The position numbers and the translations under genes are program-made. 64,000 bases of DNA from Parcubacteria group bacterium GW2011_GWA2_47_21. GTDB taxonomy: Bacteria > Patescibacteriota > Minisyncoccia > Phycocordibacterales > DSPV01. The stretch spans positions 10,013 through 74,012 of the forward strand of contig LCOC01000005.1 in NCBI GenBank assembly GCA_001000545.1. The letters run 5' to 3'. This document shows positions 6,808-56,890 of this stretch, piece after piece (the stretch's first letter is position 1; the number at the start of each line of letters is the position of its first letter). The notes beneath the pieces are model-generated. The model worked only from the letters and a program-made list of their open reading frames with translations. It was not told the origin of the DNA and did no database searches.

Positions 6808-7284
6808 AAAAAATAACCGGTGAATTAATAAAAAAATTTAAATTAAAGAATGGCGCCGCGACGCCAACCAATATCCAAGTTCCTTTCGTAAAGTTAAAGC
6901 AAAAAACGAGGCCAAAAAGAAAAACACCCACGCAAAAAACCGCGTGAATCTTTAATAAGCCCTCGTTATTTAAAGTTTGCCAAAAAAATGGGGCGTTTAT
7001 TGGCTTCTAAAGCGTCGCCAGCCGCTACTCAATCGTGGCAGGTATTCTATACGAGCTATTTTTAATGTCAAGCGAAAAGTCAAGAGAGTTATCCACAACT
7101 GGATACGGAACAAGCGCGCCTGCCTGCCCCGCCGGGGCGGTAGGCAGGAAACTATACGACGCTAACGCAGAAAATACAAAGACGATTAAAGTGGGTTTTG
7201 CTCTACTGCCAAAATTAGTATGTTAACCCCATAAACCGAGAGCGTGTGCTATATTATTGTTCGGCAGGTATTAAAATAAAAGCC

Positions 7285-13992: not shown

Positions 13993-14047
13993 GAACAGAT
14001 GCGGATAATAATGGGATATGTCCTTAAAATTTTTCGTATTTATACGG

Positions 14048-16743: not shown

Positions 16744-17166
16744 ATAATAAATATATATTTATTATTCGCTTGTAAATTTTTATGTTTTCTTTAATTCTAA
16801 ATAAAGACCGAAGACCCATTAAAACAAAGAAAACTAACTGATTTTAGTGCTTGCGCATTAAAAACCTCGACCTTTAACACGCGGCACACCAAACATCATG
16901 CACGGGATAAGTGTACCCTTAAGCCCGAAACCTCGCAAGGTACCCCTGTGAATTACTTTTTCCTGTCTATGAGACATCGGCTAAAGATTTTAGCGTCTCA
17001 ATAATAAGATTCATTATGCCACAAACCCCCAAACATTATAAACATACCCATTATTTCGTAATTCAAAATCCGTAAATAATGGCTTGACTTTCCTATCCTC
17101 CTTTACATTGAGTTTTGTGTTAAATGCGTCCATATCGCAATATTTACTTTTTTAATACATGATTAA

Positions 17167-17538: not shown

Positions 17539-17560
17539 AAATTATTAAAAACTTTATCGT

Positions 17561-17986: not shown

Positions 17987-18007
17987 TACTTGTCTTTTTA
18001 TTTTGCA

Positions 18008-18433
18008 CTAACTTTGCTTTTTCAAAAAAGCATCCACCAGTTTAACATACTCAACATATTGGCCGAAACCGTTCCTAATGTGGGCAACCATCAATTTTTT
18101 ATTAACATCGCCGTATTGATGGACAATGGCGTTTCTCATTCCGACCGATGGCGCGATTTTTAACGCAAAGTCAATGGGCAACATTCCCGCCTCGGCAATG
18201 ATTGAAAAACTACTCTGATAATCGTCAGCGGTTTTCAGTCCACTTTCAGCTATCAAATGCATATTGATATCCACCGCCGCGTCAACCATACCCTGAAAGT
18301 GCCTTTCCAGCGCAGCGAGAACATCTTCGTCGCGAAGAAAATGTTCATCTCCTTTCTGGAACAATCTTTCAATTTTCTGATATCGCGACTGAATCTCATC
18401 CATCTTTCTTTTTATCACTTCCTTGTCAATCAT
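18008..18433 (-). CDS. HepT-like (DUF86) toxin, second HepT/MNT pair, embedded in pilin-like array
   Basis: R-x4-H-x-Y motif as MRNAIVHQY. Confidence 0.7.
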   Translation of the reverse strand: MIDKEVIKRKMDEIQSRYQKIERLFQKGDEHFLRDEDVLAALERHFQGMVDAAVDINMHLIAESGLKTADDYQSSFSIIAEAGMLPIDFALKIAPSVGMRNAIVHQYGDVNKKLMVAHIRNGFGQYVEYVKLVDAFLKKQS

Positions 18434-18449
18434 ATTTTCCTACTCAATT

Positions 18450-18857
18450 TTAATGACTCAAGATAAATTTCTGAATCGCCGTTTCCCTTATTTCAAAAAG
18501 TCGTTTCGCTTCGGCAAAAAGTTTCAAAGCGTAAATTTTGAATGCGGCATATAGAGTCGATTTTTTTTGATAGAACAAAACGGAGTTGATCGCCACGTTT
18601 TTCATCAGAAGCGGCGGCGCTTTTTTCAAATCAACTAAGTCAGTTTTTCCGATTTTCAGAATCTCAGAAAGTTCAAACTCCATTCGGACTTGTTCTTCAA
18701 AACTTTTGGGTTGAGCGGAGATAAAACCAAAATCGTAATCGCTTTTTTTGTGAGTTTTGCCGGAAACCTGCGAACCGAACAACACCAACAAGTCCAAGTC
18801 GTGTTTCTCAGCGAATCCCGACGCTTTTTCTTTTATTATCTCTAAATTTTTCACCAT
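18450..18857 (-). CDS. MNT-type nucleotidyltransferase antitoxin (second pair)
   Basis: LFGSQVSGKTHKKSDYDFG nucleotidyltransferase signature; directly upstream of HepT. Confidence 0.7.
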   Translation of the reverse strand: MVKNLEIIKEKASGFAEKHDLDLLVLFGSQVSGKTHKKSDYDFGFISAQPKSFEEQVRMEFELSEILKIGKTDLVDLKKAPPLLMKNVAINSVLFYQKKSTLYAAFKIYALKLFAEAKRLFEIRETAIQKFILSH

Positions 18858-19010
18858 CTTATAATATCACAAGATATCGATATTTACCAAAAACCGGTGA
18901 TAGCAAAACGGCGGCGAGGATGGCAGCGAAAAGTTTTTGGGATTTTGCGCGCCCTGTTAGGCAAAACGAAGGTTTAGCTTCGTTTTATCTTATGCATACC
19001 CCCCCTCAAT

Positions 19011-19439
19011 CTACGGGCAGGTCTCAAACACAAACTTGCTGCCGGTAACCTGGCCGACTGTTTCGTTTAAGACCGTAGCGATAAGCCACGACCCCAATAA
19101 TACCGCCGTGCCGATAACCGCGCCGACAAAGGCGGTGCGGGCATTTTTTAGCGCCGCGGTGTCCCCTCCCGCCGTTACAAACAGAAAACCGGAGTAAATG
19201 ATAAATACGGCGGCGACAATAATGCCAATTTTAAGGAGGATATTAATGAACCCTTTGAGAAAACAGTAGATTGATGTTGAACAAAGGGGGTTGGGGAATC
19301 CCGTGCCCTCTCCTATGCTCCCGCCTGCCGGCGGCGTGCAGGCCGCGAGGACAAGCGCCGGCGCAATCGCGGTTAATAAAAGAATCAAAACCAGCGCCGG
19401 TATTTTTATTTTTTTGAAAAATTTGTTGAAAAACGCCAT
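19011..19439 (-). CDS. Divergent VirB2/TrbC-like small membrane protein paralog
   Basis: Signal peptide then VFIIYSGFLFVTAGGDTAALKNARTAFVGAVIGTAVLLGSWLIATVL (helix-AGGD loop-helix). Confidence 0.45.
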   Translation of the reverse strand: MAFFNKFFKKIKIPALVLILLLTAIAPALVLAACTPPAGGSIGEGTGFPNPLCSTSIYCFLKGFINILLKIGIIVAAVFIIYSGFLFVTAGGDTAALKNARTAFVGAVIGTAVLLGSWLIATVLNETVGQVTGSKFVFETCP

Positions 19440-19480
19440 AAATTCAATTCGGCCGAACTAAATTGTAACATATCGCCGCC

Positions 19481-19969
19481 CTACGGAAGATTCGAGAGTT
19501 GATAACCTGCCTTGGCGAGAACGGAAAGAATCGTGTCCACGATTAGCCAAGCGGTCAAAACCAGCACGAATCCTATAGCCGCATTTTTGAAAATCTTGTG
19601 GGCTTGCTTGATTTGGCCGACATCCCCGCCGGCGGTCATATATTTAAAACCGGCGAAAGCGAAAAGAAGAACGGCAATTAAAACGCTCATGTAAATCATG
19701 AAGTCCAGGAGATTATTCGCCAGAGCGACGGCGCCGTTCCAGTTACATTCCTCCATTGTGTTGGCATACGCCGGCCCATCATATGGGGCTACTCTGGTTG
19801 GCGGACCGCCTCCGGCCGGGTTTTCAATTTTACCGTCTCCATTCAAATCGTACCCGCACGGCACAAGCGCCTCTCCGGGTTTCCAAGCGAAAACCGCCGT
19901 TGGAACAAAAGTAAGCAAGACCACTACTACTCCGCAAAAGACCAAAAAAATATTTAGAGGGCGAGCCAT
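19481..19969 (-). CDS. Divergent VirB2/TrbC-like small membrane protein paralog
   Basis: LFAFAGFKYMTAGGDVGQIKQAHKIFKNAAIGFVLVLTAWLIVDTIL after signal peptide and Gly/Pro-rich segment. Confidence 0.45.
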   Translation of the reverse strand: MARPLNIFLVFCGVVVVLLTFVPTAVFAWKPGEALVPCGYDLNGDGKIENPAGGGPPTRVAPYDGPAYANTMEECNWNGAVALANNLLDFMIYMSVLIAVLLFAFAGFKYMTAGGDVGQIKQAHKIFKNAAIGFVLVLTAWLIVDTILSVLAKAGYQLSNLP

Positions 19970-20614: not shown

Positions 20615-21890
20615 TCAGCGCGCTAAGTTCCGTGTTGGCTTGGCCGACCGCCTCGCTCACGCTTAAGCGGCCGGTAACCACCGCTTCAACCATCCGCTGG
20701 AAAATGGCGGACGTGGCGGATGGCGACGGGTCAGGCCAGCCCCTCGCCCAAAGCGCCGATTGGTCAAAAATGGCCCGCGCCGGATTGGTCTGGTCGGTGA
20801 AAAGCAAATCGCGCCTCGCCGACGGCAGGCCGGTCTTCGCGGACCACAGAAGTCCCGCGTTTTTATCAGTCAGCAAATAAATCCGGCTGACGGCGGCGGA
20901 GATGTTTCGGGAGGTTTTAAGAACCGCAACGGCGCGCATTTTACCGAAAGTGATTTTGTTCTTGGAATCCTTAAGCTGGGGAAGGCGGGAGACATCAAAA
21001 TTCAAATTGGGATTTTTCTCCCGAATCTCCTTAAATTCCGAAGCGAAACCGATGTAAATCGGCAAGGCGCCGGCCAGAAAATAATCTTTGGCCGGCGGAA
21101 AACTTTTATTCCACGAATAAACGGTCTTAAGCGGATTGGCAAAATCGGTGTAAAAACTCAAGACGGAAACAGCCGGATAAAGTTGCCCGACTGAATCCGC
21201 CAAAACCGCGTTAAAACCCTCGGGTGTCTTACCGATAATCGGCGTCCCCGCTTGAAGCAGGAGGGCCGAAAGAATCTCTTTGGCGTGGTTCACATTGCCG
21301 TATTCGCCGAAAGCCAAAGCGGGACTTACGACTTCGCCTTTTTCCGTTCGTTTGGCCAAACGGGAAACGACATAAAACATCTCCTCCCAAAATTCCGGCG
21401 GTCTGGGCAAACCGGCGGCCGAGAAAGAATCGCGGTTCCAATAAAGCACCAGCGGGTCAACGGAGAGGGGCAGGGCGGCGACGCCTTGCTCGGTTAGAAA
21501 CATCCCCCCTTCCTCAAGGAAAGTGTCTTTGAAGTCGCGAATCGGGTAGGAGTCGTAGGGAATGACCATCAACCGACTGGCAACGGCGGTAAAAAAGGAC
21601 TCCGGAAAAATGACAATGTCCGGCGCCACGCCATCGGCGATGGCGCTGATTAAATCCCGCTCAAAAGCCGCTTCGCTTTTGGCGACATAGACATTGGCGG
21701 TTTCGGTCTCCTGCGAGAACGACTCAACAAACGCGGAGTAGCTCGCGTCCGTGGGACCCCAGATTGTCAAATTAACGGCGCCCGGACCGCTTTTCCCTCC
21801 TTTATAAAGGGCAAAAGAAGCAACGCCCGCCAAAATGGCTACAAAAAACAGGCCGAGCAAAACCAGTTGGAATTTCGTCAAATTTTTCAT
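20604..21890 (-). CDS. Extracellular solute-binding protein (ABC-type SBP family 1-like), orphan
   Basis: N-terminal signal/anchor, LTIWGP and ALPLSVDPLVLYWNRD blocks typical of sugar-type SBPs; no permease/ATPase adjacent. Confidence 0.45.
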   Translation of the reverse strand: MKNLTKFQLVLLGLFFVAILAGVASFALYKGGKSGPGAVNLTIWGPTDASYSAFVESFSQETETANVYVAKSEAAFERDLISAIADGVAPDIVIFPESFFTAVASRLMVIPYDSYPIRDFKDTFLEEGGMFLTEQGVAALPLSVDPLVLYWNRDSFSAAGLPRPPEFWEEMFYVVSRLAKRTEKGEVVSPALAFGEYGNVNHAKEILSALLLQAGTPIIGKTPEGFNAVLADSVGQLYPAVSVLSFYTDFANPLKTVYSWNKSFPPAKDYFLAGALPIYIGFASEFKEIREKNPNLNFDVSRLPQLKDSKNKITFGKMRAVAVLKTSRNISAAVSRIYLLTDKNAGLLWSAKTGLPSARRDLLFTDQTNPARAIFDQSALWARGWPDPSPSATSAIFQRMVEAVVTGRLSVSEAVGQANTELSALIGR

Positions 21891-22414
21891 AGTTTTCTGG
21901 CGGTGAAGCCGTAGTGGTGAGCGCCGGCCAAGAAATTGGCTACGATTTCAAAACCGGATTTCTTAAAAATTTCCTTGGCCGATGCCGGAGGGACAACCAT
22001 ATTTGCCGTTGGCCCCAAATTGCCGAAGGACTCCGACCAATCAATAACAAACGCCCGGCCCCCTTTCTTCAAAATCCTCTTTACTTCGGACACGAGACCG
22101 GCTTTATTTTCCGCTTGAAACAAAACATTGGAGACAACGGCGGCGTCCAAGGAGTCGTCTTTGAGTTTTGTCCCGCCGATTTTTTCCGCGTCGCCCCAAA
22201 TAATTTCCAGATTATTGAGGTGCCCCTCCGCCGCCAAGCTCTTAAGCCGCGTGAGAAGATTCTCTTGCACATCAACGGCAAAAACCCGCCCGGAATCGCC
22301 GACGGCCTTCGCCAGAACCATTGAATACGCTCCGGAACCGGCGCCGATGTCGGCTACCTGCATGCCGGGTATTATGCCAAGCTGGTCAACGATGGATTGA
22401 GGGTTTAGGAACAT
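21887..22414 (-). CDS. Class I SAM-dependent methyltransferase (small, substrate unknown)
   Basis: Motif I VADIGAGSGAYS, motif post-I AVDVQ; 175 aa. Confidence 0.75.
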   Translation of the reverse strand: MFLNPQSIVDQLGIIPGMQVADIGAGSGAYSMVLAKAVGDSGRVFAVDVQENLLTRLKSLAAEGHLNNLEIIWGDAEKIGGTKLKDDSLDAAVVSNVLFQAENKAGLVSEVKRILKKGGRAFVIDWSESFGNLGPTANMVVPPASAKEIFKKSGFEIVANFLAGAHHYGFTARKL

Positions 22415-22450
22415 AGCTTCATAGCTTCATAGCTTCATAGCTTCATAGCT
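22415..22450 (-). repeat. Tandem 8-mer (ATGAAGCT on minus strand) x4.5 immediately upstream of the methyltransferase start codon, creating five in-register-shifted ATGs
   Basis: + strand AGCTTCAT x4 + AGCT directly 3' of CAT start (22412-22414); on the minus strand each unit reads ATG AAG CTA TGA (M K L stop) with TGA overlapping the next ATG. Confidence 0.9.
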
Positions 22451-22561: not shown

Positions 22562-22600
22562 CCGTGCCTGCCGGCGCGCAACGCGCGCCGGCAGGCACGG
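22562..22600. other. GC-rich perfect 18-bp-arm hairpin between gyrA 3' end and methyltransferase promoter region
   Basis: CCGTGCCTGCCGGCGCGC-aac-GCGCGCCGGCAGGCACGG; member of CCTGCC...GGCAGG palindrome family. Confidence 0.85.
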
Positions 22601-22608
22601 GAAACTAT

Positions 22609-22642
22609 GAAGCTAACGAAGCTAACGAAGCTAACGAAGCTA
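22609..22642. repeat. Tandem 9-mer (GAAGCTAAC) x3.5 abutting gyrA stop codon
   Basis: GAAGCTAACGAAGCTAACGAAGCTAACGAAGCTAAAT; + strand ORF 22607-22807 ([12 protein letters not shown]...) is just the translation of this repeat. Confidence 0.9.
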
Positions 22643-25096
22643 AATGGTAATAACCGATGCCAGCGAGTCCCCTTCTCTAAGTTTCATTATCCGAACCCCT
22701 TGGGTTTGCCGGCCGAGCGTTGGAATCTCTTTGAGAGCCACCCGAATCACTTGGCCTTTTTTGGAAATCGCCACCAATTCTGTTTCTTCATCGGTAACAA
22801 CCTTTGAGGTGATAAGCGAACCGGTCTTAGCCGTTACTTTGGCGGTCTTGATGCCCGAACCGCCTCGCTTTTGGATTTTGTATTCTTTGAGCTCGGAAAG
22901 CTTGCCGTAGCCATTCTCCGAAATGACAAGGAGCCGGGGGTTCGTCGCGGCCTTCCTCACGACATCGGCGCCGACGACAAAATCGCCCTTGCCGAGCCGC
23001 ACCGCCCGGACCCCGCCCGCGCCCCGCCCCATCACCCGAATATCGGACTCTTTGAAATGGATGGATTGACCTTTCCCCGTCGCCACCGCCGCTTCATCAC
23101 CCTTACCCACGAACGCGGCGTGCTTGAGCTCATCTCCCTGGTCTAAGCGGATGGCGATGATGCCGCTTCGCCTCACATCGTGGAAACCCTTTGAATCCAC
23201 TTTCTTGGCCACGCCGGCTTTAGTCACCATAAGTATGGCCGCTTCGGCTGCTTTGATTTCTTTAGGCATCGGCAAAACGGAAGTGACTTTTTCCTCGGCG
23301 GCCAGAGCCAGAAAATTCATAATGGACTTGCCTTTTGTTGCCCGCCGGCCTTCCGGAATCTCATACATTTTTATCTGATAGGCCTTGCCGCGGTCGGTGA
23401 AAAACAGAAGCTCGCTGTGAGTCGTGGTCGTAAGAAACATAGTCACAAAGTCCTCTTCTTTAGTGTCCAAATCAACCACCCCGACGCCCCCGCGGCGCTG
23501 TTTGCGGTACTCCTCCGGGTCGGTGCGCTTCACATAACCGCCCTTGGTAAGCACCAAAACGCTTTCTTCGTCGGCCACCAAATCCTCCATAGAGAAGCTC
23601 GCCGCCGCCGATTTGACGATTCTGGTCTTGCGCGGGTCGCCGTATTTCTCTTTGATTTCTTTGAATTCGTCTTTGATACTACCTAGAATTTTTTTCGGAT
23701 GAGCAAGGATGTCTTTGAGTTTGGCGATGAGCTCTTGGACACTCTTAAGCTCGTCCTCTATTTTCTTACGCTCCAAGCCCGCCAAGCGGGAAAGTTTCAT
23801 TTCCAAAATCGCCAGCGCCTGTCTTTCCGAAAACTTGAAGGACTTCATAAGGCCGGCTTTGGCTTCCTCCACGTCTTTAGATTTCTTTATTAACTTGATG
23901 ATTTCATCAATGTGGTCAAGGGCCTTCTTGAGGCCTAAGAGAATGTGCTCGCGGTCTTCCGCTTTGGCTAGGTCAAATTTCGTCCGTCGCTCTATCACCA
24001 CTTGGCGGTGAGAAACAAATTCTTCTAAAATGGATTTTAAGGAAAGGGTTTGAGGCACGCCGTTCACGAGCGCCACCATATTGAAATGGAAAGTGTCTTC
24101 CAGAGCGGTATGTTTGTAAAGAAAATTCAAAACGGTCTGGGGATGAGCGCCGTTCTTGAGGTCAATGACAATCCGAATATCGCGGGTGGACTCGTCGCGG
24201 AGCCCCTTAATGCCGTCCAATTTTTTCTCCCTGACCAAGTCGGCGATTTTCTCTATGAGGTCGGCTTTGTTGACGCGGTAAGGGATGGAGGTGATGACGA
24301 TTTGGAAAGCGCCGGCTTTCGTCTCAACAATTTCCGCTTCACCTCGGGCAACGACTCCGCCTTTCCCCGTGCTGTAAGCGTGGCGAATGTCATCCGCGCC
24401 AAAAATCACCCCGCCGGTCGGAAAATCGGGACCTTTGACGAATTTAAGCAAACCATCGGTGGTCATATCCGGGTCGTCTATTAGAGCGGACGCGGCATCC
24501 ACCACTTCGCCTAAGTTGTGAGTCGGAATGTTGGAAGCCATACCAACGGCGATGCCTAGCGTGCCGTTTAGAAGGAGTACCGGCACGGCGGCGGGCAAAA
24601 CTATCGGCTCTTTTTTGGTGCCGTCGTAATTGGGGCGAAAATCAACCGTGTCCTTCTCAATGTCCCGCAAAAGCTCGCCGGCGATTTTTGACATCTTGCA
24701 TTCGGTGTATCGGTACGCCGCCGCACTGTCGCCATCAATTGAACCCCAGTTGCCTTGGCCGATGACCAGTGGATATCTGATAGAAAAATCCTGAACCATT
24801 TTCACCATTGATTCATAGACGGCGGCGTCGCCGTGGGGATGATAACTGCCTAACACATCGCCGACCACCGTCGCCGATTTCTTAAATTTCGCCGAGGCCG
24901 TCAAACCCTTCTCGTGCATCACGTAAAGAATCCGCCGGTGGACCGGCTTTAAGCCGTCTCGCACATCAGGCAAAGCGCGGGCTGTTATCACCGACATGGC
25001 GTAATCCAAATACGCCTCTTTCATCTCCGTGCTGATATTTTGGAGTATCACGGCGCGAGCCACCGGCGCGCTTTTTGGTTCGGATTCTTTGGACAT
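22640..25096 (-). CDS. gyrA: DNA gyrase subunit A
   Basis: 818 aa; GyrA N-terminal blocks ([40 protein letters not shown], active-site Tyr region AAYRYTE) and C-terminal beta-pinwheel repeats. Confidence 0.95.
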
Positions 25097-27901: not shown

Positions 27902-27928
27902 CCGTGTCAACCTGCCAGGTTGACACGG
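27902..27928. repeat. Third copy of GTCAACCTGCCAGGTTGAC palindrome (13-bp-stem hairpin) at convergent gene junction rpsA/pth
   Basis: CCGTGTCAACCTG-C-CAGGTTGACACGG. Confidence 0.85.
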
Positions 27929-28047
27929 AAATATGGCTTAACAAAAGCTTGGGCGCATCAGATTCTCCCAAACCGATTTGGGAGGAGCTGATGCTCCCAA
28001 AATGCTCCCGAAGACGGTGTTCCCGGAAGCTGAAAAATTAATGGGAG

Positions 28048-29562: not shown

Positions 29563-30771
29563 ATGCAACCCAACACAGCAAAAGGTGGCGACATCCGCTT
29601 AAAAAACGCCAGCGTGGCCGAAGAGGTTGCCCTTTATTACGGCTTCAAGCCCGCCAGGGCACCCGCTGTGAACCGTGACGACTTGCACCAAGCCAAAATC
29701 CTAAGGGCCGGCGAAAGACGCTTAGTGGACGAGAAAACCATCGTCATCCGCCCGGAAGAACAAATCGCCATTCTACGGCTCTACGAAGAAAATAATTGGC
29801 ACAAAGAGCCCCAACCGATTTTTCTGTTCTTTGAGGGAAAGTTTCCCGGAGCGGCGGAACACAAAAACCCGCGGACTTTCCGACGAGTCCGTCTGGACAT
29901 CTTGGGTTCCTCAAAAAGCGTCTGTGAAGCCATCATAATAAAAACGGCGATAGAAATCCTCATTGAAGAGGGTTTTGAAAACCTCTATGTGGACATCAAC
30001 TCAATCGGCGATAAAGAATCCTTCCATTGTTTCAACAAGGACTTGGGCGCGTATTTAAGAAAGCGGGCCGGCGAGCTTCACGGCGTCTGCCGCGAAAAAC
30101 TGAAATTTGACCCTTTGGAGGCCTTAAATTGCGAAAATCAAAAATGCCAGGGCGTATTCGGCGAGGCGCCGAAGAGCATCTCTTATTTAAACGAGCCGAG
30201 CCGCAAACATTTTATGGAGGTCTTGGAATTTCTGGAATCAACCGGCATACCCTATCGCGTCAATGACCAGCTGGTTTCAAACCACGAAATGGCCTGCCAT
30301 ACGATTTTTGAAGTAAAATCATTAAATGACGAAACGGAGCAAAACCGAGCCCTGCCTTTGGCGTCCGGTTTTCGTTCCAACGGCTTGAGTAAAAAGGTCG
30401 GCTGGTCCCGCGATATAGCGTCAATCGGCATTGCTTTGCTTTACAAAGGCAACGGCAAAAATAAAAAAAATCTGCGTTTCAAGAAACCGAAAATCTACTT
30501 CGTGCAGATAGGTTTTGAAGCAAAACTTAAAAGCTTGAAGATAATAGAGATGCTTCGGAAGATTAAAGTGCCGCTTCTCCAAGCCCTTTCCAGAGACAAG
30601 CTAAGCGCCCAGCTCGCCACCGCGGAAAACCTGAAAATCCCCTACACCATCATTATGGGACAAAAAGAAGCGGTGGAAAATAACGTGATTATCCGCGATA
30701 TGAGCAACCGCTCCCAAGAGGTGGTGAAGATAGAAGAATTGCCGGCATACCTCAAAAAACTTGGGATTTAA
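29563..30771 (+). CDS. hisS: Histidine--tRNA ligase homolog (class II core + HGTP anticodon-binding domain), divergent
   Basis: Alignable to HisRS: RPEEQIAILRLYEENNW...FRRVRLDILG (motif 2 region), LYVDINSIG (cf. LELNSIG), EVLEFLESTGIPYRVNDQLV, C-terminal anticodon-binding fold (KIYFVQIGFEAK...IPYTIIMGQKE). Confidence 0.55.
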   Translation: MQPNTAKGGDIRLKNASVAEEVALYYGFKPARAPAVNRDDLHQAKILRAGERRLVDEKTIVIRPEEQIAILRLYEENNWHKEPQPIFLFFEGKFPGAAEHKNPRTFRRVRLDILGSSKSVCEAIIIKTAIEILIEEGFENLYVDINSIGDKESFHCFNKDLGAYLRKRAGELHGVCREKLKFDPLEALNCENQKCQGVFGEAPKSISYLNEPSRKHFMEVLEFLESTGIPYRVNDQLVSNHEMACHTIFEVKSLNDETEQNRALPLASGFRSNGLSKKVGWSRDIASIGIALLYKGNGKNKKNLRFKKPKIYFVQIGFEAKLKSLKIIEMLRKIKVPLLQALSRDKLSAQLATAENLKIPYTIIMGQKEAVENNVIIRDMSNRSQEVVKIEELPAYLKKLGI

Positions 30772-30789
30772 AAAGCGCGATGCCAATAC

Positions 30790-30900
30790 TGTCTCTGTGC
30801 AAACCTGCTTGCGCGCCGCCTGCCTGTGCGTGTCCTGCTTGCGCGCCGCGCGCAGGCAAGCCGCACGCAGACAGGCGCGCGGGCAAGCACACACAGGCAG
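30790..30900. repeat. GC-rich imperfect large palindrome with internal direct repeats between hisS and rpsU
   Basis: CCTGCTTGCGCGCCGC occurs twice 29 bp apart; region is largely self-complementary (CCTGCCTGTGCGTG...CAGACAGGCGCG...). Confidence 0.7.
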
Positions 30901-33016: not shown

Positions 33017-33326
33017 AAATCGCCCGGGCATATGTTTTTCAACGCGCGACAAAACACCCCCCCAGCCGGGCGTTTTTTGTGCTCGCCTTGCCGCTTGCCC
33101 TGCCGCTTGCCAACTCCCGTTGGCAAGCGGCAGGATTCCCAAAAAAGACGCTGGGGTCAAATTTTTAAGAAACATTTGCTTGACTTGTCAACTCTTCCTT
33201 TTTTGAGCGGGTTTGTGTAGTATGCGACACTATAAAGCGGAGCGGATTCAAAACGGCGCTTCTGGCAAAAGCTCTCAAACGGTTTTTCATTTTTCGTTTG
33301 GCTTTTTAAATTTTACATAAATCATT

Positions 33327-36959: not shown

Positions 36960-37030
36960 GGGAGGAAAAGGATTTGCTTTGCCTCGGCTCTTTTTCCAAA
37001 ACCACGGGGATTTGGTATCCGCCGCGCCGG
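36960..37030. repeat. Inverted repeat, left copy (71 bp) flanking UDG-like/radical SAM cassette
   Basis: GGGAGGAAAAGGATTTGCTTTGCCTCGGCTCTTTTTCCAAAACCACGGGGATTTGGTATCCGCCGCGCCGG; exact reverse complement at 39184-39254. Confidence 0.9.
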
Positions 37031-39183: not shown

Positions 39184-39254
39184 CCGGCGCGGCGGATACC
39201 AAATCCCCGTGGTTTTGGAAAAAGAGCCGAGGCAAAGCAAATCCTTTTCCTCCC
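39184..39254. repeat. Inverted repeat, right copy (71 bp)
   Basis: Reverse complement of 36960-37030; the two copies enclose 37031-39183. Confidence 0.9.
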
Positions 39255-39326
39255 TTTTGAAAATAGGTGCGAGCTTGGTACAATAGACACACCATAAGGA
39301 GATTAGGAGGAATTTTTCCTATTTCA

Positions 39327-39355
39327 CAATGGGCTTCCGCAATGGAAGCCCATTG
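39327..39355. repeat. Hairpin repeat element CAATGGGCTTCC-GCAAT-GGAAGCCCATTG, copy 1
   Basis: 31-bp identity (CACAATGGGCTTCCGCAATGGAAGCCCATTG) with 46290-46320. Confidence 0.9.
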
Positions 39356-39643
39356 AATTTCCGCAACGCCGCGCGCTTCGCGCGCGTGAAGTGTCAGGTT
39401 CAATCCGAAGATTTTTTGAGCGAACGATTTTTTGAGAGAAAGAGGGGCGAAGACATTTAATATAATGCTTGCCCCACGCCACCCGTGCGCGCATTATGAA
39501 AACTTTGCCGATTTTCAAATCGGCAACTCCATAAGATACGAGTTAAGTTCCTATAACTTCTTCACCTCGTTAGAAACGCTCTCAATACCGCAAAGATTTT
39601 ATTTTTCATTATTTCAATCAACCGGCGATTGGTGTCGGCTATT

Positions 39644-46063: not shown

Positions 46064-46291
46064 ATGCCTAATTACTTTCTCTACGCTCGCAAAAGCACCG
46101 ATGTTGAAGACAAGCAAGTCCGGTCTATTGACGACCAACTTACTGTCTTGCGAGCGTTGGCGAAAGAGCAAAATTTCTCCATCACCCGAGAGTTCATAAA
46201 GAGGCAATCCGCGAAAATGCCCGGACACCCCGTCTTTGATGAAATGCTCGCCCTGATTGAGAAAGGCGAAGCGCGCGGCGGTCCACAAACA
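46064..46291 (+). pseudogene. Serine recombinase (resolvase/invertase-type) N-terminal catalytic-domain fragment, interrupted after ~75 aa by the hairpin repeat
   Basis: MPNYFLYARKSTDVEDKQVRSIDDQLTVLRALAKEQNFSITREFIKRQSAKMPGHPVFDEMLALIEKGEA matches Y-x-R-x-S-T...Q...L serine recombinase N-terminus; similarity ends where palindrome 46290-46320 begins. Confidence 0.6.
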
Positions 46292-46320
46292 CAATGGGCT
46301 TCCGCAATGGAAGCCCATTG
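46292..46320. repeat. Hairpin repeat element, copy 2
   Basis: Identical 31-bp core to 39325-39355. Confidence 0.9.
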
Positions 46321-46549
46321 TTTGGCTGGTAAAAAATCTTTCAGTTGGATTATGGTGGGCGGTATAGGGCTCGACCCTTACAGGGTCAGTACACCTTTCC
46401 CATTTTCTCGCGATAAGAATCGCTCGAAAATATGGGAGAAGGTCTTCAAATCCTCTCTCGCAACCAAAATCTTTTGCCCATCTAAATATATCAAAAAACT
46501 TGTTTGTTACAACTCAAACCAATTTTTTCAAAAAGTCATTTTCAAAAAC

Positions 46550-47896: not shown

Positions 47897-49282
47897 ATGG
47901 TGATTTTAGGCGTTGAAACGAGTTGTGACGAAACGGCTCTGGCTTTAATAGAAGCCGAGGACGATTCGGTGCGGGTCCTGGCAGACATCACGCATTCGCA
48001 AGCGGCGCTTCACGCAAAATACGGTGGCGTGTTTCCTAATCTTGCCAAACGGGAACACAGCCGAAACCTGATTCCATTGCTGAAAAATCTCTTAGCGGAA
48101 TCAGGTTTCGGAAATCCCAAATCACAAGCGCCCCGCCTGCCAATCGGCGGGCAGGCAAATTCCCTGCCTGCGCCGAATCGGCTTCGGCAGGCAGGCAAAC
48201 AAATCCAAAGTGTTAAATCCAAAACACTAAACGCTAAACGCTCTACGCTAAACGCTATCTTCGAGCGGGAGCCGGAGTTGTGGGAACAATTTGAGAGGTT
48301 TATCCCGACAATTGAAAAGCCGCCGATTGATGCGATTGCAGTAACCTACGGACCCGGGCTTGAGCCGGCGCTGTGGGTCGGCATTAATTTCGCGAAAGCG
48401 CTCGGAGTGATTTGGAACATCCCGGTGATTCCAACGAATCATATGGAAGGGCACATCGTTTCCGCGCTGTTGCGCAGAAACGCAAACTCTAAATCCGAAA
48501 CTCTAAATTCCCTGCCTGCGCCGAATCGGCTTCGGCAGGCAGGCAAACAAATCCTAAATTCAAAATCTCAAATACTAAATGCTACACGCTATACACTACA
48601 CGCCATACGCTTTCCTGCTATTGCTTTACTCATCTCCGGCGGGCATACAGAGTTGGTGCTGGTTAAAAAGCTGGGACAATACGAAATTATTGGCGAGACG
48701 AAAGATGATGCGGTCGGCGAGGCGTTTGATAAAGTGGCGCGCATCCTTGGACTTCCCTATCCTGGAGGACCGGAAATCTCCGCGCTGGCAGAGCGGGCGC
48801 GGCAAGCAAAACAAGGTTCGACCTTGGAGTCGGGAAAAAGGTCGAACCTTGTTTTGCCAAGACCCATGCTCCATTCGGGCGACTACCACTTTTCTTTTTC
48901 CGGTTTAAAAACTGCGGTGCTGTACACGGTAAAAAAGATTCCGAGGGTCACGGCCGCAATCAAACAAGCGCTCGCGAAAGAGTTTGAAGATTCCGTCACG
49001 GAAGTGCTCATTTCCAAAACAACCAAAGCCATCAAAGAATACGAAGCAAAGACCTTAATCATCGCCGGCGGGGTAATCGCCAACAAACACATCCGCTCCG
49101 CCTTTGAGGAACTTCGCGCATCTGCCTTCCCTTCCCTTGAGCTCCTCATCCCCGAAATCCCCCATTCCACCGACAACGCACTCATGATCGCCGTTGCGGG
49201 GTATCTCAACCTAAAATCCGGCCGCCGACCAGCAAAGGGAAACGAGTTTATAATCATCGCCTCCGGCCGCGTTCGACTGTAA
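47897..49282 (+). CDS. tsaD: tRNA N6-adenosine threonylcarbamoyltransferase TsaD (Kae1/Gcp family) carrying in-frame repeat insertions
   Basis: ILGVETSCDETA, NHMEGH, LISGGHTELVLV, DDAVGEAFDKVARILGLPYPGGP, FSFSGLKT conserved blocks; interrupted by two copies of a 49-bp palindromic repeat and AT-rich simple repeats (peptide NSLPAPNRLRQAGKQI occurs twice). Confidence 0.85.
   Translation: MVILGVETSCDETALALIEAEDDSVRVLADITHSQAALHAKYGGVFPNLAKREHSRNLIPLLKNLLAESGFGNPKSQAPRLPIGGQANSLPAPNRLRQAGKQIQSVKSKTLNAKRSTLNAIFEREPELWEQFERFIPTIEKPPIDAIAVTYGPGLEPALWVGINFAKALGVIWNIPVIPTNHMEGHIVSALLRRNANSKSETLNSLPAPNRLRQAGKQILNSKSQILNATRYTLHAIRFPAIALLISGGHTELVLVKKLGQYEIIGETKDDAVGEAFDKVARILGLPYPGGPEISALAERARQAKQGSTLESGKRSNLVLPRPMLHSGDYHFSFSGLKTAVLYTVKKIPRVTAAIKQALAKEFEDSVTEVLISKTTKAIKEYEAKTLIIAGGVIANKHIRSAFEELRASAFPSLELLIPEIPHSTDNALMIAVAGYLNLKSGRRPAKGNEFIIIASGRVRL
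48158..48206. repeat. Palindromic repeat copy 1 inside tsaD (AATTCCCTGCCTGCGCCGAATCGGCTTCGGCAGGCAGGCAAACAAATCC)
   Basis: Identical 49-mer at 48506-48554; nested palindrome CCTGCCTGC...GCAGGCAGG. Confidence 0.9.
48506..48554. repeat. Palindromic repeat copy 2 inside tsaD
   Basis: Same 49-mer as 48158-48206. Confidence 0.9.
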
Positions 49283-49422: not shown

Positions 49423-51597
49423 ATGGCACTACCGGAAAAATTTTTAAAACCCTACAACCACACCGAGACGGAGGCGCGGATTTACAAACTCTGGGAAGAG
49501 GGCGGCTTTTTCCAGCCCGAGGCTGGTCGGCCTTGGGCCGATAACCCTGACTCTCCCTCTACCAACCACAAACTATCAACTAACAACTTCTGCATCATTA
49601 TGCCTCCCCCGAACGCCAACGGCCACCTTCACGCCGGCCACGCGCTTTTTATCACCCTTGAAGACATTATGACCCGCTATAAACGAATGCGGGGTTTTAA
49701 GACACTCTGGCTTCCCGGCGCCGACCACGCCGGTTTTGAGACCCAAATCGTCTACGAGAAAAAACTGGAAAAGGAGGGGCGCTCTCGTTTCAAAATGGCG
49801 CCTAAAGAGCTTTTTGACGAAATAATGGCTTTTACGCTAGAAAATAAAAAGTTCATGGAAGCGGAAGTCCGAGCGCTCGGCGCTTCATGCGACTGGACGA
49901 GAGAACGTTTTACGCTTGACCCCGATATCATCAAAAAAGTCCAACAAACATTCAAGAAAATGTATGACGACGGCCTTATCTATCGCGGACCGAGAATCGT
50001 CAACTGGTGTTCCAAACATCTGACTTCCCTTTCCGATGTGGAAACGGAAAACCGCGAAGTGAAAGACAAATTTTATTATTTCCAATACGGCCCGTTCGTT
50101 ATCGGCACATCAAGGCCGGAAACCAAGTTTGGCGACAAATATGTGGTCATGCACCCCAAGGACAAACGCTATGACAAATACAAAGACGGGGAGAAAATGG
50201 AACTGGAATGGATTAACGGAAAAATCACCGCCACCGTCATTAAAGACGAAGCGGTTGATATGGAATTCGGCACCGGCGTCATGACCATCACCCCGTGGCA
50301 CGACGCGGCGGACTTTGAAATCGCCAAGCGCCACAACCTTGACCAAGAACAAATCATTGATTGGCGCGGGAAACTTCTGCCCATCGCCGGAGAATTTGCG
50401 GGAATGAAAATCGCCGAAGCCCGCCCCAAAATCGTGGAAAAACTCAAAGCCAAAGGCCTCTTGGTCAAAGTGGAAGAAAATTACGTCCATAATGTGCCAA
50501 TCTGCTATAAATGCGAAACGCCAATTGAGCCGCAAATTATGCCGCAATGGTTCGTCAAAATGGCGCCCTTAGCGAAGCTCGCCACGGACGCGGTGGAAGC
50601 GGGAAAAATAAAATTTATGCCCGACAACTACCGAAAAATTTTCCTCTACTGGATGAAAAACGCGCTGGACTGGAACATTTCCCGCCAAATCGTCTGGGGT
50701 ATTCCGATTCCGGCAAAAATCTGCGACAACTGCGGCGAAGGAACGCCGGACTTGGACAACGAGGTGAGAGAATGTCCGAAGTGCAAAGGCGTTATCCGCG
50801 CCGATACTGACACCTTTGACACTTGGTTCTCTTCCGGCCAGTGGCCGCTTCTCACTTTGAATTTCCCAGACGGCGAGGACTTCAAGGCCTTCTATCCGAC
50901 CGATGTGATGGAAACCGGCTCCGACCTAATTTTCAAGTGGGTGCCGAGAATGGTGATTTTCGGCCTATACCTAGCGGACGAGGTGCCCTTTAGGACCGTC
51001 TACCTCCACGGTTTGGTCAACGACGCTAAGGGGCAAAAGATGTCCAAAAGCAAGGGCAACATTATCAATCCTTTAGAACTCACGGCGAAATACGGCACTG
51101 ACGCTTTGCGCATCGCTCTCATTATCGGCAATACGCCGGGTACCGCTCTGTCACTTTCGGAGAATCGCATCAGGGGTTACAAACATTTTGCCAATAAACT
51201 CTGGAACATTACCCGTTTTGCTCTGGAAAATATTCCGGAAGACATCCTTGACAAAGAACCAAAGCTCTCCGAGACGGACGAAATCCACCTTAAAAATTTT
51301 GAGGCCTTAACGCGCGAAGTGACCGAGGATATGGAACAGTTTCGTTTTTATCTCGCCGCCGAAAAACTCTATCACTATGTCTGGCACGAATTTGCTGATA
51401 AAATAATTGAGGAGAAAAAAAATAATCTAAACGGCGACGATACTCCGGCGAAAAAATCAGCCGAACGACTCCTGCAACATATCCTGAAAAATTCGCTCGT
51501 CATGCTCCACCCCTTCATTCCTTTCGTTACTGAAGAAATTTGGTCGCACCTGAAGAAAAAGGAGATGCTTATGGTAGAAAGATGGCCTGTTGAATAG
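49423..51597 (+). CDS. valS: Valine--tRNA ligase (short form, no long C-terminal coiled coil)
   Basis: Class I HIGH variant PPPNANGHLHAGHA, KMSKSKGN, ValRS-like N-terminus YNHTETEARIYKLWEEGGFF. Confidence 0.75.
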   Translation: MALPEKFLKPYNHTETEARIYKLWEEGGFFQPEAGRPWADNPDSPSTNHKLSTNNFCIIMPPPNANGHLHAGHALFITLEDIMTRYKRMRGFKTLWLPGADHAGFETQIVYEKKLEKEGRSRFKMAPKELFDEIMAFTLENKKFMEAEVRALGASCDWTRERFTLDPDIIKKVQQTFKKMYDDGLIYRGPRIVNWCSKHLTSLSDVETENREVKDKFYYFQYGPFVIGTSRPETKFGDKYVVMHPKDKRYDKYKDGEKMELEWINGKITATVIKDEAVDMEFGTGVMTITPWHDAADFEIAKRHNLDQEQIIDWRGKLLPIAGEFAGMKIAEARPKIVEKLKAKGLLVKVEENYVHNVPICYKCETPIEPQIMPQWFVKMAPLAKLATDAVEAGKIKFMPDNYRKIFLYWMKNALDWNISRQIVWGIPIPAKICDNCGEGTPDLDNEVRECPKCKGVIRADTDTFDTWFSSGQWPLLTLNFPDGEDFKAFYPTDVMETGSDLIFKWVPRMVIFGLYLADEVPFRTVYLHGLVNDAKGQKMSKSKGNIINPLELTAKYGTDALRIALIIGNTPGTALSLSENRIRGYKHFANKLWNITRFALENIPEDILDKEPKLSETDEIHLKNFEALTREVTEDMEQFRFYLAAEKLYHYVWHEFADKIIEEKKNNLNGDDTPAKKSAERLLQHILKNSLVMLHPFIPFVTEEIWSHLKKKEMLMVERWPVE

Positions 51598-54177: not shown

Positions 54178-54220
54178 GACCTGCCTGCCCTGTCTGCGTC
54201 TGGACGCACAGGCGGGCAGG
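54178..54220. repeat. GC-rich imperfect palindrome of CCTGCC...GGCAGG family
   Basis: GACCTGCCTGCCCTGTCTGCGTCTGGACGCACAGGCGGGCAGG. Confidence 0.8.
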
Positions 54221-54997: not shown

Positions 54998-56890
54998 TTA
55001 TTGTCTCATCATCTTCACAAACACCTCCTCCGGAATATTGACCTTGCCTCGCTCTTTGAGCCGTTTCTTGCCTTCCTTTTGTTTCTCCCACAGTTTTCTT
55101 TTTCGCGTGATATCGCCGCCGTATAAATAGCCGGTAACATCTTTTCGGAGCGCTGAAAGGGTGCGGGAAGAAATAATGCGGCCCAAGGCCTTGGCTTGAA
55201 TTTTTGTTGCAAACATTTGGCGAGGCAGAATTTTGTGAAGTTTTTCAACGCTGGCTTCGGCTTCGGTTTCAAGGCGTCGCCGCGATACGATGCGGGCAAA
55301 AGCCGGCACCGATTCCCCAGCCACCAGAATTTCCATCTTTACCACATCGGCCATTTCTTCTCCTTGGATTTTATAAGAAAGGGAGCCGTAACCGGAGGTG
55401 GCACTTTTGAGCTCGTCAAAAAAATTCCGCATCAGTTCCCTAAGAGGCATTCTGGCTTCCACCTCGGTCCGGTTGTCGCTTAAATTTTCCGTGACGCCAA
55501 CCACCGCTTCGTGTTCGTAAAAAAGCTGCATCACATTGCCCAGATAATCCGCCGGCGCGATTATTTGGACGGCGGCCCACGGCTCCCGAACTGACACCAC
55601 CTCGCCGTGGTCGGGAAAATGAATCGGCGAGTAAGCGATTTTCTGCCGGCCGGCGCGGTCGGTTACCTCGTAACTGATTGAGGGCGTGGTAACAATTATT
55701 TTCAGACCAAATTCCCGCCGAAGCCGTTCGGTAATAATTTCCAAGTGAAGCATCCCGAGAAAACCGACCCGAAATCCCCGCCCCAAGACGCCGGAGGACT
55801 CTTCCTCATAAGCGAACGATGAATCGGAAAGCCGAAGGCGCGCCAAGGCCTGACGCAAAGCATTAAAGTCATCCTGACTTTCCGGATAGACGGACGCCCA
55901 GACCACCGGAGCGGGTTTGCCGTAACCGGGGAGCGCTAAGGCCGGGTTTTTATCGGAAGTAACCGTGTCGCCAACCGTCGCAATACCCGGCTCTTTTATG
56001 CCCGTTATAATGTAGCCGATTTCGCCAGCCGAGAGGGTTTCTGTCGGCATTTCTTTTGGCGAGAAAACCCCAAGATCAATCGGGATAAAGCGGGCTTTGC
56101 CGGCAATGAGGCGAAGCGCGTCTCTCTTATTCACTTCGCCCGCCATTACCCTAAGATAAAGAATTACGCCGGTGTGATTAGAGTATTGGAAATCAAAAAT
56201 GAGGGCCTGGAAGTTTTCTCCTGTTTGTTTCGGCGGCGGCACTTTCCCAATGATTTCTTCAAGAAGTTCAGGAACGCCTTGGCCGGTTCTACCCGATACT
56301 TCCATTATCTCGCCTTCCGCTACGTGGAGAAGTTTTGCCATATCGGCCTTAACATCGACCACTCTTGCCAAAGGCGAATCAATTTTATTTACCGCCGGAA
56401 TAATGGCTAGGCCCTGTTCCCTGGCCATCTGAAGCACTGAAAGCGTCTGTGCCTGCACACCCTGCGTCGCGTCTACCAGTAAAATCGCGCCCTCCACGGC
56501 CTTAAGCGCGCGTGACACCTCATACGAGAAATCAATGTGACCCGGCGTGTCTATCAAATTCAGAATGAATTCTGAACCTGCAAACCCTAAACTCGAAACC
56601 CTAATCTCTAAACTTTTTGGGAAATTTGGATTTGAATATTGGGATTTGTTTAGAATTTTGGATTTAGAACTTAAATTTTCCGCATGATTCCCTTTGTAAA
56701 TCATGCGGACGGGTTTCATCTTTATGGTGATTCCCCTTTCCCGTTCGAGCTCCATGGAATCAAGCACTTGGTCTTGCATCTTTCTTTTTTCAATCGTGCC
56801 AGTCAGCTCCAAAAAACGGTCCGCAAGCGTGGACTTGCCGTGGTCTATATGCGCTATGACGCAAAAGTTGCGGATGTTTTCCAGACCCAT
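54998..56890 (-). CDS. lepA: Translation elongation factor 4 (LepA) with ~40-aa low-complexity insertion in G domain
   Basis: MGLENIRNFCVIAHIDHGKSTLADR G1 motif, DTPGH G3 motif, LepA C-terminal domain; insertion AENLSSKSKILNKSQYSNPNFPKSLEIRVSSLGFAGSEF encoded by AT-rich simple repeat at 56570-56680. Confidence 0.9.
   Translation of the reverse strand: MGLENIRNFCVIAHIDHGKSTLADRFLELTGTIEKRKMQDQVLDSMELERERGITIKMKPVRMIYKGNHAENLSSKSKILNKSQYSNPNFPKSLEIRVSSLGFAGSEFILNLIDTPGHIDFSYEVSRALKAVEGAILLVDATQGVQAQTLSVLQMAREQGLAIIPAVNKIDSPLARVVDVKADMAKLLHVAEGEIMEVSGRTGQGVPELLEEIIGKVPPPKQTGENFQALIFDFQYSNHTGVILYLRVMAGEVNKRDALRLIAGKARFIPIDLGVFSPKEMPTETLSAGEIGYIITGIKEPGIATVGDTVTSDKNPALALPGYGKPAPVVWASVYPESQDDFNALRQALARLRLSDSSFAYEEESSGVLGRGFRVGFLGMLHLEIITERLRREFGLKIIVTTPSISYEVTDRAGRQKIAYSPIHFPDHGEVVSVREPWAAVQIIAPADYLGNVMQLFYEHEAVVGVTENLSDNRTEVEARMPLRELMRNFFDELKSATSGYGSLSYKIQGEEMADVVKMEILVAGESVPAFARIVSRRRLETEAEASVEKLHKILPRQMFATKIQAKALGRIISSRTLSALRKDVTGYLYGGDITRKRKLWEKQKEGKKRLKERGKVNIPEEVFVKMMRQ
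56570..56680. repeat. AT-rich AAACCCTAA / TTGGATTT simple-repeat element lying in-frame inside lepA
   Basis: AAACCCTAAACTCGAAACCCTAATCTCTAAAC...GGAAATTTGGATTTGAATATTGGGATTTGTTTAGAATTTTGGATTTAGAAC. Confidence 0.8.

Follow-up and report, generated by a model that had tools for sequence, protein, structure and literature searches.

How does a conserved, essential gene come to contain the same GC-rich palindromic sequence twice, in frame and without a single difference? The question is raised by the tsaD gene of Parcubacteria group bacterium GW2011_GWA2_47_21, located in a stretch of 64,000 nt of contig LCOC01000005.1 (hereafter the window, to which all coordinates are relative). The open reading frame (ORF) at 47897..49282, on the plus strand, codes for TsaD (PF00814). 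Within it the 49-mer AATTCCCTGCCTGCGCCGAATCGGCTTCGGCAGGCAGGCAAACAAATCC is found exactly at 48158-48206 and again at 48506-48554, both copies in one frame and read as NSLPAPNRLRQAGKQI, just as a first-pass annotation of this DNA had described. The 49-mer is free of stops in all six frames, and no match to it appeared in 100 shuffles of the window even when three mismatches were allowed. Our analysis shows that tsaD carries a lineage-specific, dispersed, non-coding GC-rich hairpin repeat, formed by a 33-nt hairpin (hpB) with a CAAAC-type tail, to which a second hairpin of 24 nt (hpA) is related. The proposal of the first-pass annotation, in-frame colonisation of tsaD by a repeat, is supported overall, with refinements regarding the age of the different parts, one hairpin (H3) that had been grouped with the rest, the termini that define the palindromes and the history of the two copies. 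The features of the gene relevant to the repeat are the following.

47897..49282, plus strand: tsaD coding sequence, 461 aa, intact, all family-invariant residues present.
48134..48157, plus strand: hpA, a 24-nt GC hairpin (CGCCTGCCAATCGGCGGGCAGGCA) of 8 codons in phase 0, encoding RLPIGGQA, -15 kcal/mol.
48157..48258, plus strand: copy 1 of a 102-nt repeat unit, composed of AAATTC, hpB, a CAAACAAATCC tail, an A/C-rich tract and a heptamer array.
48163..48195, plus strand: hpB copy 1, a 33-nt hairpin (CCTGCCTGCGCCGAATCGGCTTCGGCAGGCAGG) of 11 codons (LPAPNRLRQAG), -21.9 kcal/mol.
48222..48257, plus strand: heptamer array (CTAAACG)x5, encoding LNAKRSTLNA.
48505..48606, plus strand: copy 2 of the 102-nt repeat unit, 86% identical to copy 1.
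48511..48543, plus strand: hpB copy 2, the identical 33-nt hairpin in the frame and codon phase of copy 1.
48581..48611, plus strand: heptamer array (GCTACAC)x4.4, encoding ATRYTLHAIR.

The direct repeat is really longer than the 49-mer, since it extends over 102 nt (48157-48258 versus 48505-48606) with 86% identity, the first 50 nt being identical. A palindrome that had been placed at about 48134 is real and corresponds to hpA, so that three hairpin copies (hpA and two of hpB) lie within the tsaD coding sequence. In the array at 48222..48257 one unit reads CTCTACG instead of CTAAACG, a change that eliminates an in-frame TAA and argues, at the sequence level, that the heptamer tract is translated. 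A terminator role of these hairpins was rejected, because a terminator scan reported none at hpA or hpB on either strand and the sense strand continues with CAAA.. and no T-run. A known RNA family or riboswitch in tsaD was rejected as well, given that only six tRNAs reach the Rfam gathering score in the window and nothing does in tsaD.

A doubled sequence in a metagenomic assembly could be an artefact of assembly or binning, in which a mis-join induced by the repeat had duplicated the 49-mer, and it is true that assemblers can be confused by repeats. However, the exact tsaD DNA was recovered in three independent assemblies from different projects (JGI 3300025308, ENA ERZ27254745 and a Rifle ANAN16 scaffold, the last one 99.3% identical to the window overall), which excludes this explanation for practical purposes; we give it next to no chance. 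The exact protein was found on 13 contigs, and the frame and all the conserved motifs of TsaD are intact.

The relatives of this TsaD are all Parcubacteria/Paceibacteria, the nearest being 'Candidatus Taylorbacteria', and the best match of the gene in the GTDB representative set is 68% identical. As closest relative with available DNA we used a syntenic contig from the same metagenome (L001), the TsaD of which is identical to that of GW2011_GWC2_48_17 (L006), and as outgroups two syntenic but more distant orthologs (L091 and L092). At the first insert site L001 has nearly the same low-complexity sequence, but without the 57 nt that hold both hairpins. In L091 and L092 the site is empty and reads ..CAAGCACCA AATTCC AAACAAATTCC.. 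(QAPNSKQIPN), which can also be written ..GCNCCA AATTCC AAACAAATTCC.., and its counterpart in the window is formed by GCGCCC, the 24-nt hpA, AATTCC, the 33-nt hpB and AAACAAATCC, with hpB copy 1 sitting between the AATTCC and the AAACAAATCC of the ancestral tract. hpA is not present in any of these three relatives. This shows that the window tsaD gained two separate insertions in phase 0, one of 24 nt (8 codons) and one of 33 nt (11 codons). A deletion in L001 instead of an insertion in the window was ruled out by the empty site of the outgroups. The duplication within the gene need not reflect two arrivals; a single insertion, later copied within the gene, may lie behind it.

The 57-nt event is recent. 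Genes of the window and of L001 have DNA identities of only 55-70%, with identical codons at 35-45% of the identical residues, but between aa 46 and 124 of tsaD the use of identical codons is 0.80-0.93 (background 0.35-0.45), and it is because the indel falls within this tract that we consider it young. On the other hand, the A/C-rich tract and the (CTAAACG)n array flanking the hairpins are common to the orthologs and are the older component, only the hairpins being new. Of the extra segments, which the first-pass annotation had weighed as possible lineage-specific loops, the low-complexity and heptamer stretches beside the hairpins are old and occur in orthologs too, but the hairpins are missing from the orthologs. 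The gene as a whole (47897-49282) is a mosaic when compared with L001 and two other relatives (L007 and L008), with tracts of ~50-250 nt nearly identical in codons and the relative involved differing by tract. Such a pattern shows that Parcubacteria lineages living together often exchange DNA by homologous recombination. A nucleotide-level constraint behind the 87-96% identity with L001 at the flanks of site 1 was rejected, and inter-lineage recombination preferred, because L007 and L008 share other high-identity tracts instead.

The insert sites correspond to three loops that vary in length among 69 Parcubacteria orthologs (63-97 aa at site 1, 21-60 aa at site 2 and 18-45 aa at site 3), with the window TsaD exceeding all the others at loops 1 and 2. 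An AlphaFold2 model obtained with an 89-sequence alignment had a mean pLDDT (predicted local distance difference test) of 84.9 with 317 residues at or above 90. It fell below 50-65 in only three places (aa ~71-110, 200-225 and 301-320), and these coincide with the insert sites. The inserts are thus predicted to be disordered and to lie outside the confident core of TsaD. Both outcomes that had been expected of real insertions were found, namely orthologs lacking the segment (in L001) or with an empty site (in L091 and L092), and placement in variable loops, here of low pLDDT.

Long loops at these three positions are present in most Parcubacteria TsaDs, and peptide modules such as SKQIPNSK.. 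and LNAKRYTLNA recur in orthologs, which could suggest that these are ordinary protein loops of the lineage and that NSLPAPNRLRQAGKQI is a selected motif involved, for example, in binding a partner. We consider this very improbable. The two copies are identical in DNA over 50 nt, with no synonymous differences, the closest orthologs do not have the NSLPAPNRLRQAGKQI peptide, and the region is predicted to be disordered. What largely refutes a selected peptide is that the same DNA is found in rRNA and intergenic sequence.

This dispersal emerged when the inner 24 nt of hpB were searched for, as exact matches only, in a collection of metagenomes. Five contigs were retrieved, which represent three further loci beyond tsaD, and the presence of the same 33-mer with its A-rich tail in at least three other metagenomic loci bears out the expectation of copies elsewhere. 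In the first locus (L087/L088) hpB is located in the rnhB-rpmF spacer, with a related hairpin before it and CAAACAAATTC.. after it. In the second (L086/L089) a helix of the 23S rRNA (model position ~2237) has an insertion of 204 nt in place of its 4-nt loop, and hpB lies within it; a copy with one mismatch is found in a second insertion, of 209 nt, at a different 23S helix tip (model position ~2820). Heptamer arrays such as (AAATCCC)x4 surround both copies. In the third (L090) hpB is upstream of a DUF1016 gene, beside a second CCTG-type palindrome, in a contig of 54% GC and with flanks that are not of low complexity. The identical 33-nt hairpin occupies there positions 350-382 of a 1.4-kb contig (Ga0114946_10132457) with DUF1016 and TPS-domain genes. 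This contig may come from another phylum, in which case the hairpin crosses phylum boundaries. The A-rich tail that accompanies the 33-mer at the dispersed loci has the form CAAA(C/T), and the length of the shared segment goes from 50 nt between the two tsaD sites to a ~61-nt double hairpin with L087 and to hairpin and tail only in L090. Besides, a related hairpin, CCGCCTGCGCCAAAGCTTCGGCGGGCAGG, is present in TsaD loop 2 of L091, and the hairpin CCTGCCTGCGCAGGCAGG in TsaD loop 3 of another ortholog (L024).

Because this DNA is found in coding sequence, in rRNA and between genes alike, a protein-level explanation of the repeated peptide is excluded, and hpB is a dispersed repeat similar to repetitive extragenic palindromic (REP) sequences or to Rickettsia palindromic elements (RPEs), rather than a loop maintained at the protein level. 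Tracts of A/C-rich heptanucleotides are its normal setting, both between genes and in the insertions located at 23S helix tips. A phage origin was rejected, as neither the hpB core nor the degenerate pattern of the family was found in the IMG/VR viral contigs.

In the first-pass annotation the tsaD hairpins had been connected with other palindromes of the window by their CCTGCC/GGCAGG ends. Palindromes of the form CCTGCC-N(2-30)-GGCAGG are indeed present at seven distinct sites of the window (7119-7148, which had been overlooked, 22567-22595, 33099-33134, 48136-48155, 48163-48195, 48511-48543 and 54180-54220) against 0.08 expected. Their density is 7 in 64 kb in the window, 3 in 14 kb in L089 and 2 in 15 kb in L087, with none in the 21 kb of L001, the closest sequenced relative together with L006. 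Nevertheless, the kinship is limited to the termini and does not reach the interior: a pattern specific for the interior matches just the tsaD copies in the window, and a single family for all the palindromes was rejected. Those outside tsaD, to which no strand is assigned, are listed below with one further GC-rich palindrome.

7119..7148, no strand: intergenic CCTGCC..GGCAGG palindrome, followed by AAACTATACGACGCTAACG.
22562..22600, no strand: intergenic palindrome, 18-bp stem with a CCTGCC/GGCAGG core, tandem arrays on both sides.
30789..30900, no strand: 112-nt nested GC-rich palindrome downstream of the gene 29563..30771.
33099..33134, no strand: intergenic CCTGCC..GGCAGG palindrome, left arm made from CTTGCCG heptamers, inside a longer T-run/A-run hairpin, terminator-like.
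54180..54220, no strand: intergenic CCTGCC..GGCAGG palindrome, downstream of a tRNA-Gly gene (minus strand) and upstream of tRNA-Arg.

The palindrome at 22562-22600 is bracketed by two perfect arrays that are near-inverted versions of one another: (CATAGCTT)x4.9 at 22412-22450, which extends into the ATG of the methyltransferase gene 21887..22414 (minus strand), and (GAAGCTAAC)x3.9 at 22609-22643, which abuts the stop of the gene 22640..25096 (minus strand). A second palindrome family, CGCGTCAACCTGCCAGGTTGACGCG, was found in the window at 8221-8257, 8279-8315 and 27903-27939, two of the copies forming an inverted pair 58 nt apart.

Apart from hpA and hpB, tsaD contains hairpins of another nature, built from its own codons.

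48061..48111, plus strand: H0, 15-bp perfect arms (CCGAAACCTGATTCC and GGAATCAGGTTTCGG) with a 21-nt loop, the arms encoding native SRNLIP and ESGFG.
48457..48482, plus strand: H2, directly after HMEGH, left arm of native codons (IVSALL), right arm an inverted copy (RRN).
48806..48857, plus strand: H3, 20-nt perfect arms (48806-48825 and 48838-48857) with a 12-nt loop, -33.4 kcal/mol, z = -6.9.

H3 had been described as a palindrome with 12-bp arms at 48812-48851 and included with the CCTGCC elements. It is real and located in tsaD, but its arms are of 20 nt and it falls outside that family. It is common to L001, L007 and L010, with 92.5% of the cells paired and three pairs changed on both sides in what look like compensatory changes. 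H3 represents a different and older class, retained in orthologs, and consists of native codons and an inverted copy of them alongside; its right arm encodes the residues directly before the conserved PRPM, and the equivalent hairpin has 20 bp in L054. Many orthologs have a hairpin of the H2 type at the same codons but of a different sequence, that of L012 having 22 bp. Over the 69 tsaD orthologs, 53 perfect hairpins of at least 9 bp were found versus 7.6 after synonymous-codon shuffling, a seven-fold excess, and 42 of the 53 are within the three loops, many of them with one arm of native codons. The window tsaD holds four of the 11 perfect coding hairpins present in 46.6 kb of coding DNA.

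Replication template switching is known to create and maintain hairpins in which one arm is the reverse complement of adjacent sequence, with perfect pairing and apparent compensatory changes (PMC8794818). H0, H2, H3 and the junction hairpins of the lepA gene (see below) are similar in having one arm in conserved native codons. By contrast, hpA and hpB do not have it, their sequence being foreign to tsaD. By analogy, native-codon stems together with apparent compensatory changes are what template switching would produce, with the difference that the published work treats RNA genes, and here the hairpins are in protein-coding loops and the hpB family has been copied between distant loci.

The same hairpins could be interpreted as selected cis-acting structures of RNA or DNA, acting in the processing or stability of the tsaD mRNA or as translational pause sites between folding units, with the rRNA copies as functional expansion segments. 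They are very stable (z from -3 to -7), and the maintenance of 92.5% of the H3 pairs in four orthologs, with three double changes, the recurrence of H2-type hairpins at the same codons and the share of perfect coding hairpins that falls in tsaD are all in agreement with selection. However, the closest relatives do not have hpA and hpB, so tsaD does not need them, and the same hairpin is found in unrelated contexts. Nor has tsaD an Rfam match or a terminator-like tail, and any given hairpin is missing from most orthologs. As to the double changes, template switching can yield them in one step (PMC8794818). On balance, selection for structure seems to us distinctly improbable.

The first-pass annotation had wondered whether copies in other genes also preserve the frame, and two other genes of the window do have in-frame inserts of this sort, a GC hairpin in valS and a low-complexity palindromic segment in lepA.

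49513..49542, plus strand: valS insert, a 30-nt in-frame GC-rich hairpin (QPEAGRPWAD) not present in L001, followed by CTAWCAA heptamers.
56564..56692, minus strand: lepA insert, 129 nt in-frame, A/C-rich heptamers pairing with G/T-rich heptamers ((AAACCCT)x4.6).

The corresponding valS loop holds (CTAAACG)n in L001 and, in L091, a GC hairpin with heptamers on either side. The ends of the lepA insert are inverted copies of native codons, CCGCATGATT..AATCATGCGG and TTCAGAAT..ATTCTGAA. Heptamers are shared between sites as well, and an identical 32-mer, CTAAACGCTAAACGCTCTACGCTAAACGCTAT, is found in TsaD loop 1 of the window and L001 and in loop 3 of L092, with (CTAAACG)n present also in valS, lepA and intergenic DNA of relatives. 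In 158 kb of the clade (the window plus L001, L007, L087, L089, L091 and L092), 50 of the 61 short tandem arrays of at least three copies have a period of 7, and two thirds of the arrays are outside long ORFs. In 1.1 Mb of other Parcubacteria loci the period-7 arrays were 80 out of 150. The heptanucleotide arrays have ~3-6 copies, and their units are lineage-specific (CTAAACG, AAATCCC, AGCTAAC, ATTTTCA, ACGCAGA..). In the lepA gene of L001 the native LepA beta-hairpin before LNLIDTPGH is encoded by (CTAYACG)n (YTLDATRYTL, 19673-19703), and a separate 78-nt insert (26 aa) of CGCAGA-type repeats is found in the 18700-18780 region.

The insertion polymorphism, the dispersal, the frame and phase and the loop placement are seen directly in the comparisons, and from there we infer how the repeat has spread. 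We favour, with a probability of roughly 0.55, that the hairpins are recent additions to an older tsaD loop, dispersed by templated copying and carried as translated neutral passengers. The repeat would be copied by homology- or microhomology-guided templated events between similar A/C-rich tracts, either through ectopic gene conversion or through replication template switching, and the second tsaD copy would derive from the first by intragenic copying, or the reverse. The same type of process could account for the identical 32-nt heptamer module in different tsaD loops of different genomes, and for the many hairpins of tsaD, lepA and valS with one arm that repeats the neighbouring native codons in inverted form. 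Once there, the inserts would most likely be neutral passengers. The tolerance of tsaD to them is explained, by observation or prediction, by the stop-free 49-mer, insert lengths that are multiples of three and the placement in length-variable loops. Templated copying is favoured because the length of the shared segment varies by locus, because the heptamer modules likewise move between loops, and because no transposase among the ORFs scanned, and no fixed ends, terminal repeats or clear target duplication, were seen.

A non-autonomous mobile element could also have produced this distribution, be it a sequence similar to REPs or REPINs and moved by a REP-associated tyrosine transposase (RAYT), or a mini-element derived from IS200/IS605 with a hairpin end. 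Its target would be AAATYC^AAAC, and only in-frame loop insertions would survive in essential genes. This is suggested by the identical 33-mers in unrelated contexts, one of them without low-complexity flanks in a contig of different GC, by the constant 3' tail CAAA(C/T) that moves with the hairpin, by the same junctions at both tsaD copies, by the AATTTCC that flanks the related hairpin of L091 on both sides and by a family abundant in the lineage and missing from the nearest relative. Yet neither the 20 small and medium ORFs of the window that were scanned nor the Pfam lists for the loci yielded a Y1/RAYT or other transposase, the palindrome is the only terminal inverted repeat, and the shared segment differs in length by locus. 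Moreover, the apparent duplications are inside tandem repeats and indistinguishable from pre-existing sequence, and no copies were found in viral contigs. We find active transposition unlikely.

Several observations do weigh against templated copying of neutral passengers. The 64 kb studied are only part of the genome, and a transposase may be located elsewhere. The flanks of 7 nt and 11 nt that are identical at both tsaD copies could equally be the target of site-specific insertion, the AATTTCC repeats of L091 are a possible target duplication, and the L090 copy, with its flanks and its 54% GC contig, fits active mobility better. The compensatory changes of H3 could reflect selection for structure instead of a mutational process, and the translation of the inserts is suggested solely by frame conservation and stop avoidance.

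Templated copying could be part of something broader, although we consider it a tentative idea that is more doubtful than not: that the clade runs a distinctive sequence-generating process, which seeds ~30-nt heptanucleotide arrays and inverted-copy hairpins and shuffles them between loci, the same modules building 'expansion segments' in 23S helix tips, in intergenic spacers and in the surface loops of TsaD, ValS and LepA. If true, it would be a bacterial counterpart of the eukaryotic rRNA expansion segments and low-complexity protein inserts, and might stem from the loss of exonucleases that suppress template switching or from a dedicated polymerase or recombinase. The dominance of 7-nt arrays and the junction hairpins of native codons make the mutational mechanism testable.

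The window contains other repeats. A structured element of ~70-120 nt is located at 46349-46467, and in L001 at 4588-4706, at 5670-6109 (three tandem copies with a period of 185 nt) and, inverted, at ~6520-6780. It lies in or beside the 3' halves of tRNA-like sequences, is 96-97% identical in two genomes that share only ~65% identity in their coding DNA, and may represent a mobile element targeting tRNA genes. A 71-nt inverted repeat, 100% complementary (36960-37030 and 39184-39254), surrounds a 2.15-kb segment with UDG and radical-SAM/B12-binding genes that has the opposite orientation in an independent assembly (L003), being either an invertible segment or an assembly ambiguity. Inverted repeats of 56 nt (39326-39381 and 46266-46321), each with the hairpin ACAATGGGCTTCCGCAATGGAAGCCCATTG, surround a 6.9-kb island with ResIII helicase, NYN, N6/N4 methyltransferase and HTH genes that adjoins tRNA-Ser, likely a mobile restriction-modification island. 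Direct repeats of 84-161 nt with 93-99% identity (12462-12622, 13920-14003 and 14782-14942) are found around a Fic-domain gene, with a 95% identical copy on L087 (13529-13650). Finally, at 15019-19969 (minus strand) at least seven small paralogous T4SS_pilin (PF18895) genes share a 55-nt repeat (family D2).

Comparison with systems already described helps to place the hairpin repeat. RPEs are dispersed palindromic repeats found in intergenic regions and in-frame within unrelated housekeeping genes, the ORF being preserved (PMC10969869). The repeat described here is similar in being both intergenic and in-frame within an ORF, where it adds an extra peptide at points tolerated by the fold. It is multicopy (two copies in tsaD and at least three further loci with the 33-mer), and its 24- and 33-nt insertions are in phase 0 in a gene with intact ORF and invariant residues, at sites of low pLDDT, and so predicted to be flexible. 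The resemblance to RPEs noted in the first-pass annotation is thus valid as an analogy, in-frame and dispersed, but size, lineage and architecture differ, and for this reason the repeat would be an analogue of RPEs, in function the closest one known to us, and not a member of the group. RPEs, which we compared by their description, are of ~100-150 bp with a conserved peptide and belong to an alphaproteobacterial genus (Rickettsia); here there is a much shorter core of 24-33 nt with a short A-rich tail in a unit of 50-102 nt, heptamer tracts, insertions in 23S rRNA and a host from a different phylum within the Candidate Phyla Radiation (CPR).

REPs and REPINs are short (20-40 nt), GC-rich imperfect palindromes, lineage-specific, often in tandem pairs and mostly extragenic (PMC3116915, PMC3184786). 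hpB (33 nt) and hpA (24 nt) are comparable in size and GC-richness, and together form a tandem pair. However, REPs are extragenic by definition and linked to RAYTs, and here three copies are inside an essential gene, the others being extragenic or in rRNA, with no RAYT among the window ORFs scanned. MITEs (miniature transposable elements with inverted repeats), such as the Coxiella QMITEs, ERIC or Correia elements, are small non-autonomous repeats that can sit in ORFs, create in-frame fusions and add peptides (PMC5896051, PMC10969869). The repeat studied here is far smaller and has neither terminal inverted repeats around a distinct body nor an unambiguous target-site duplication. Its sole inverted repeat is the hairpin, and the AATTTCC at either side in L091, like the AAATTCC / AAATCC of the window, falls within tandem tracts, so that a duplication is indistinguishable from the target.

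The rRNA genes of CPR bacteria harbour numerous insertions, placed at stem-loop tips or bases and in some cases short and lacking ORFs (PMC11270868), and the 204- and 209-nt insertions bearing hpB at helix tips are of this kind. A text search of that work found no mention of palindromes or repeats, and it does not seem to describe one module common to protein loops and rRNA insertions (PMC11270868). In-frame palindromic or heptamer repeats in CPR bacteria were not found described in full-text literature searches.

Heptanucleotide tandem repeats are known in cyanobacteria as short tandemly repeated repetitive (STRR) sequences, described as intergenic. The 7-nt arrays are likewise the dominant class here, but the unit sequences and the phylum are different, and the arrays extend to translated sequence, namely that of tsaD, valS and lepA. 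The GC clusters of yeast mitochondria, including the 'byp' elements, are short mobile GC-rich hairpins that have entered coding sequence in a genome richer in AT. A byp breaks the frame and the ribosome bypasses it, unlike the inserts described here, all of them in-frame and free of stops, which speaks for ordinary translation. These inserts provide natural insertion-tolerance maps for TsaD, ValS and LepA, and help to explain that some CPR proteins and rRNAs exceed the expected length. They are also a warning to annotators and phylogeneticists, as parts of 'conserved' marker genes are here repeat-derived and mosaic. The in-frame colonisation of essential genes by palindromic repeats has been regarded as a peculiarity of Rickettsia. 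Its occurrence in a free-standing CPR lineage suggests a more general outcome in small-genome bacteria, an idea reinforced by the copies at rRNA helix tips.

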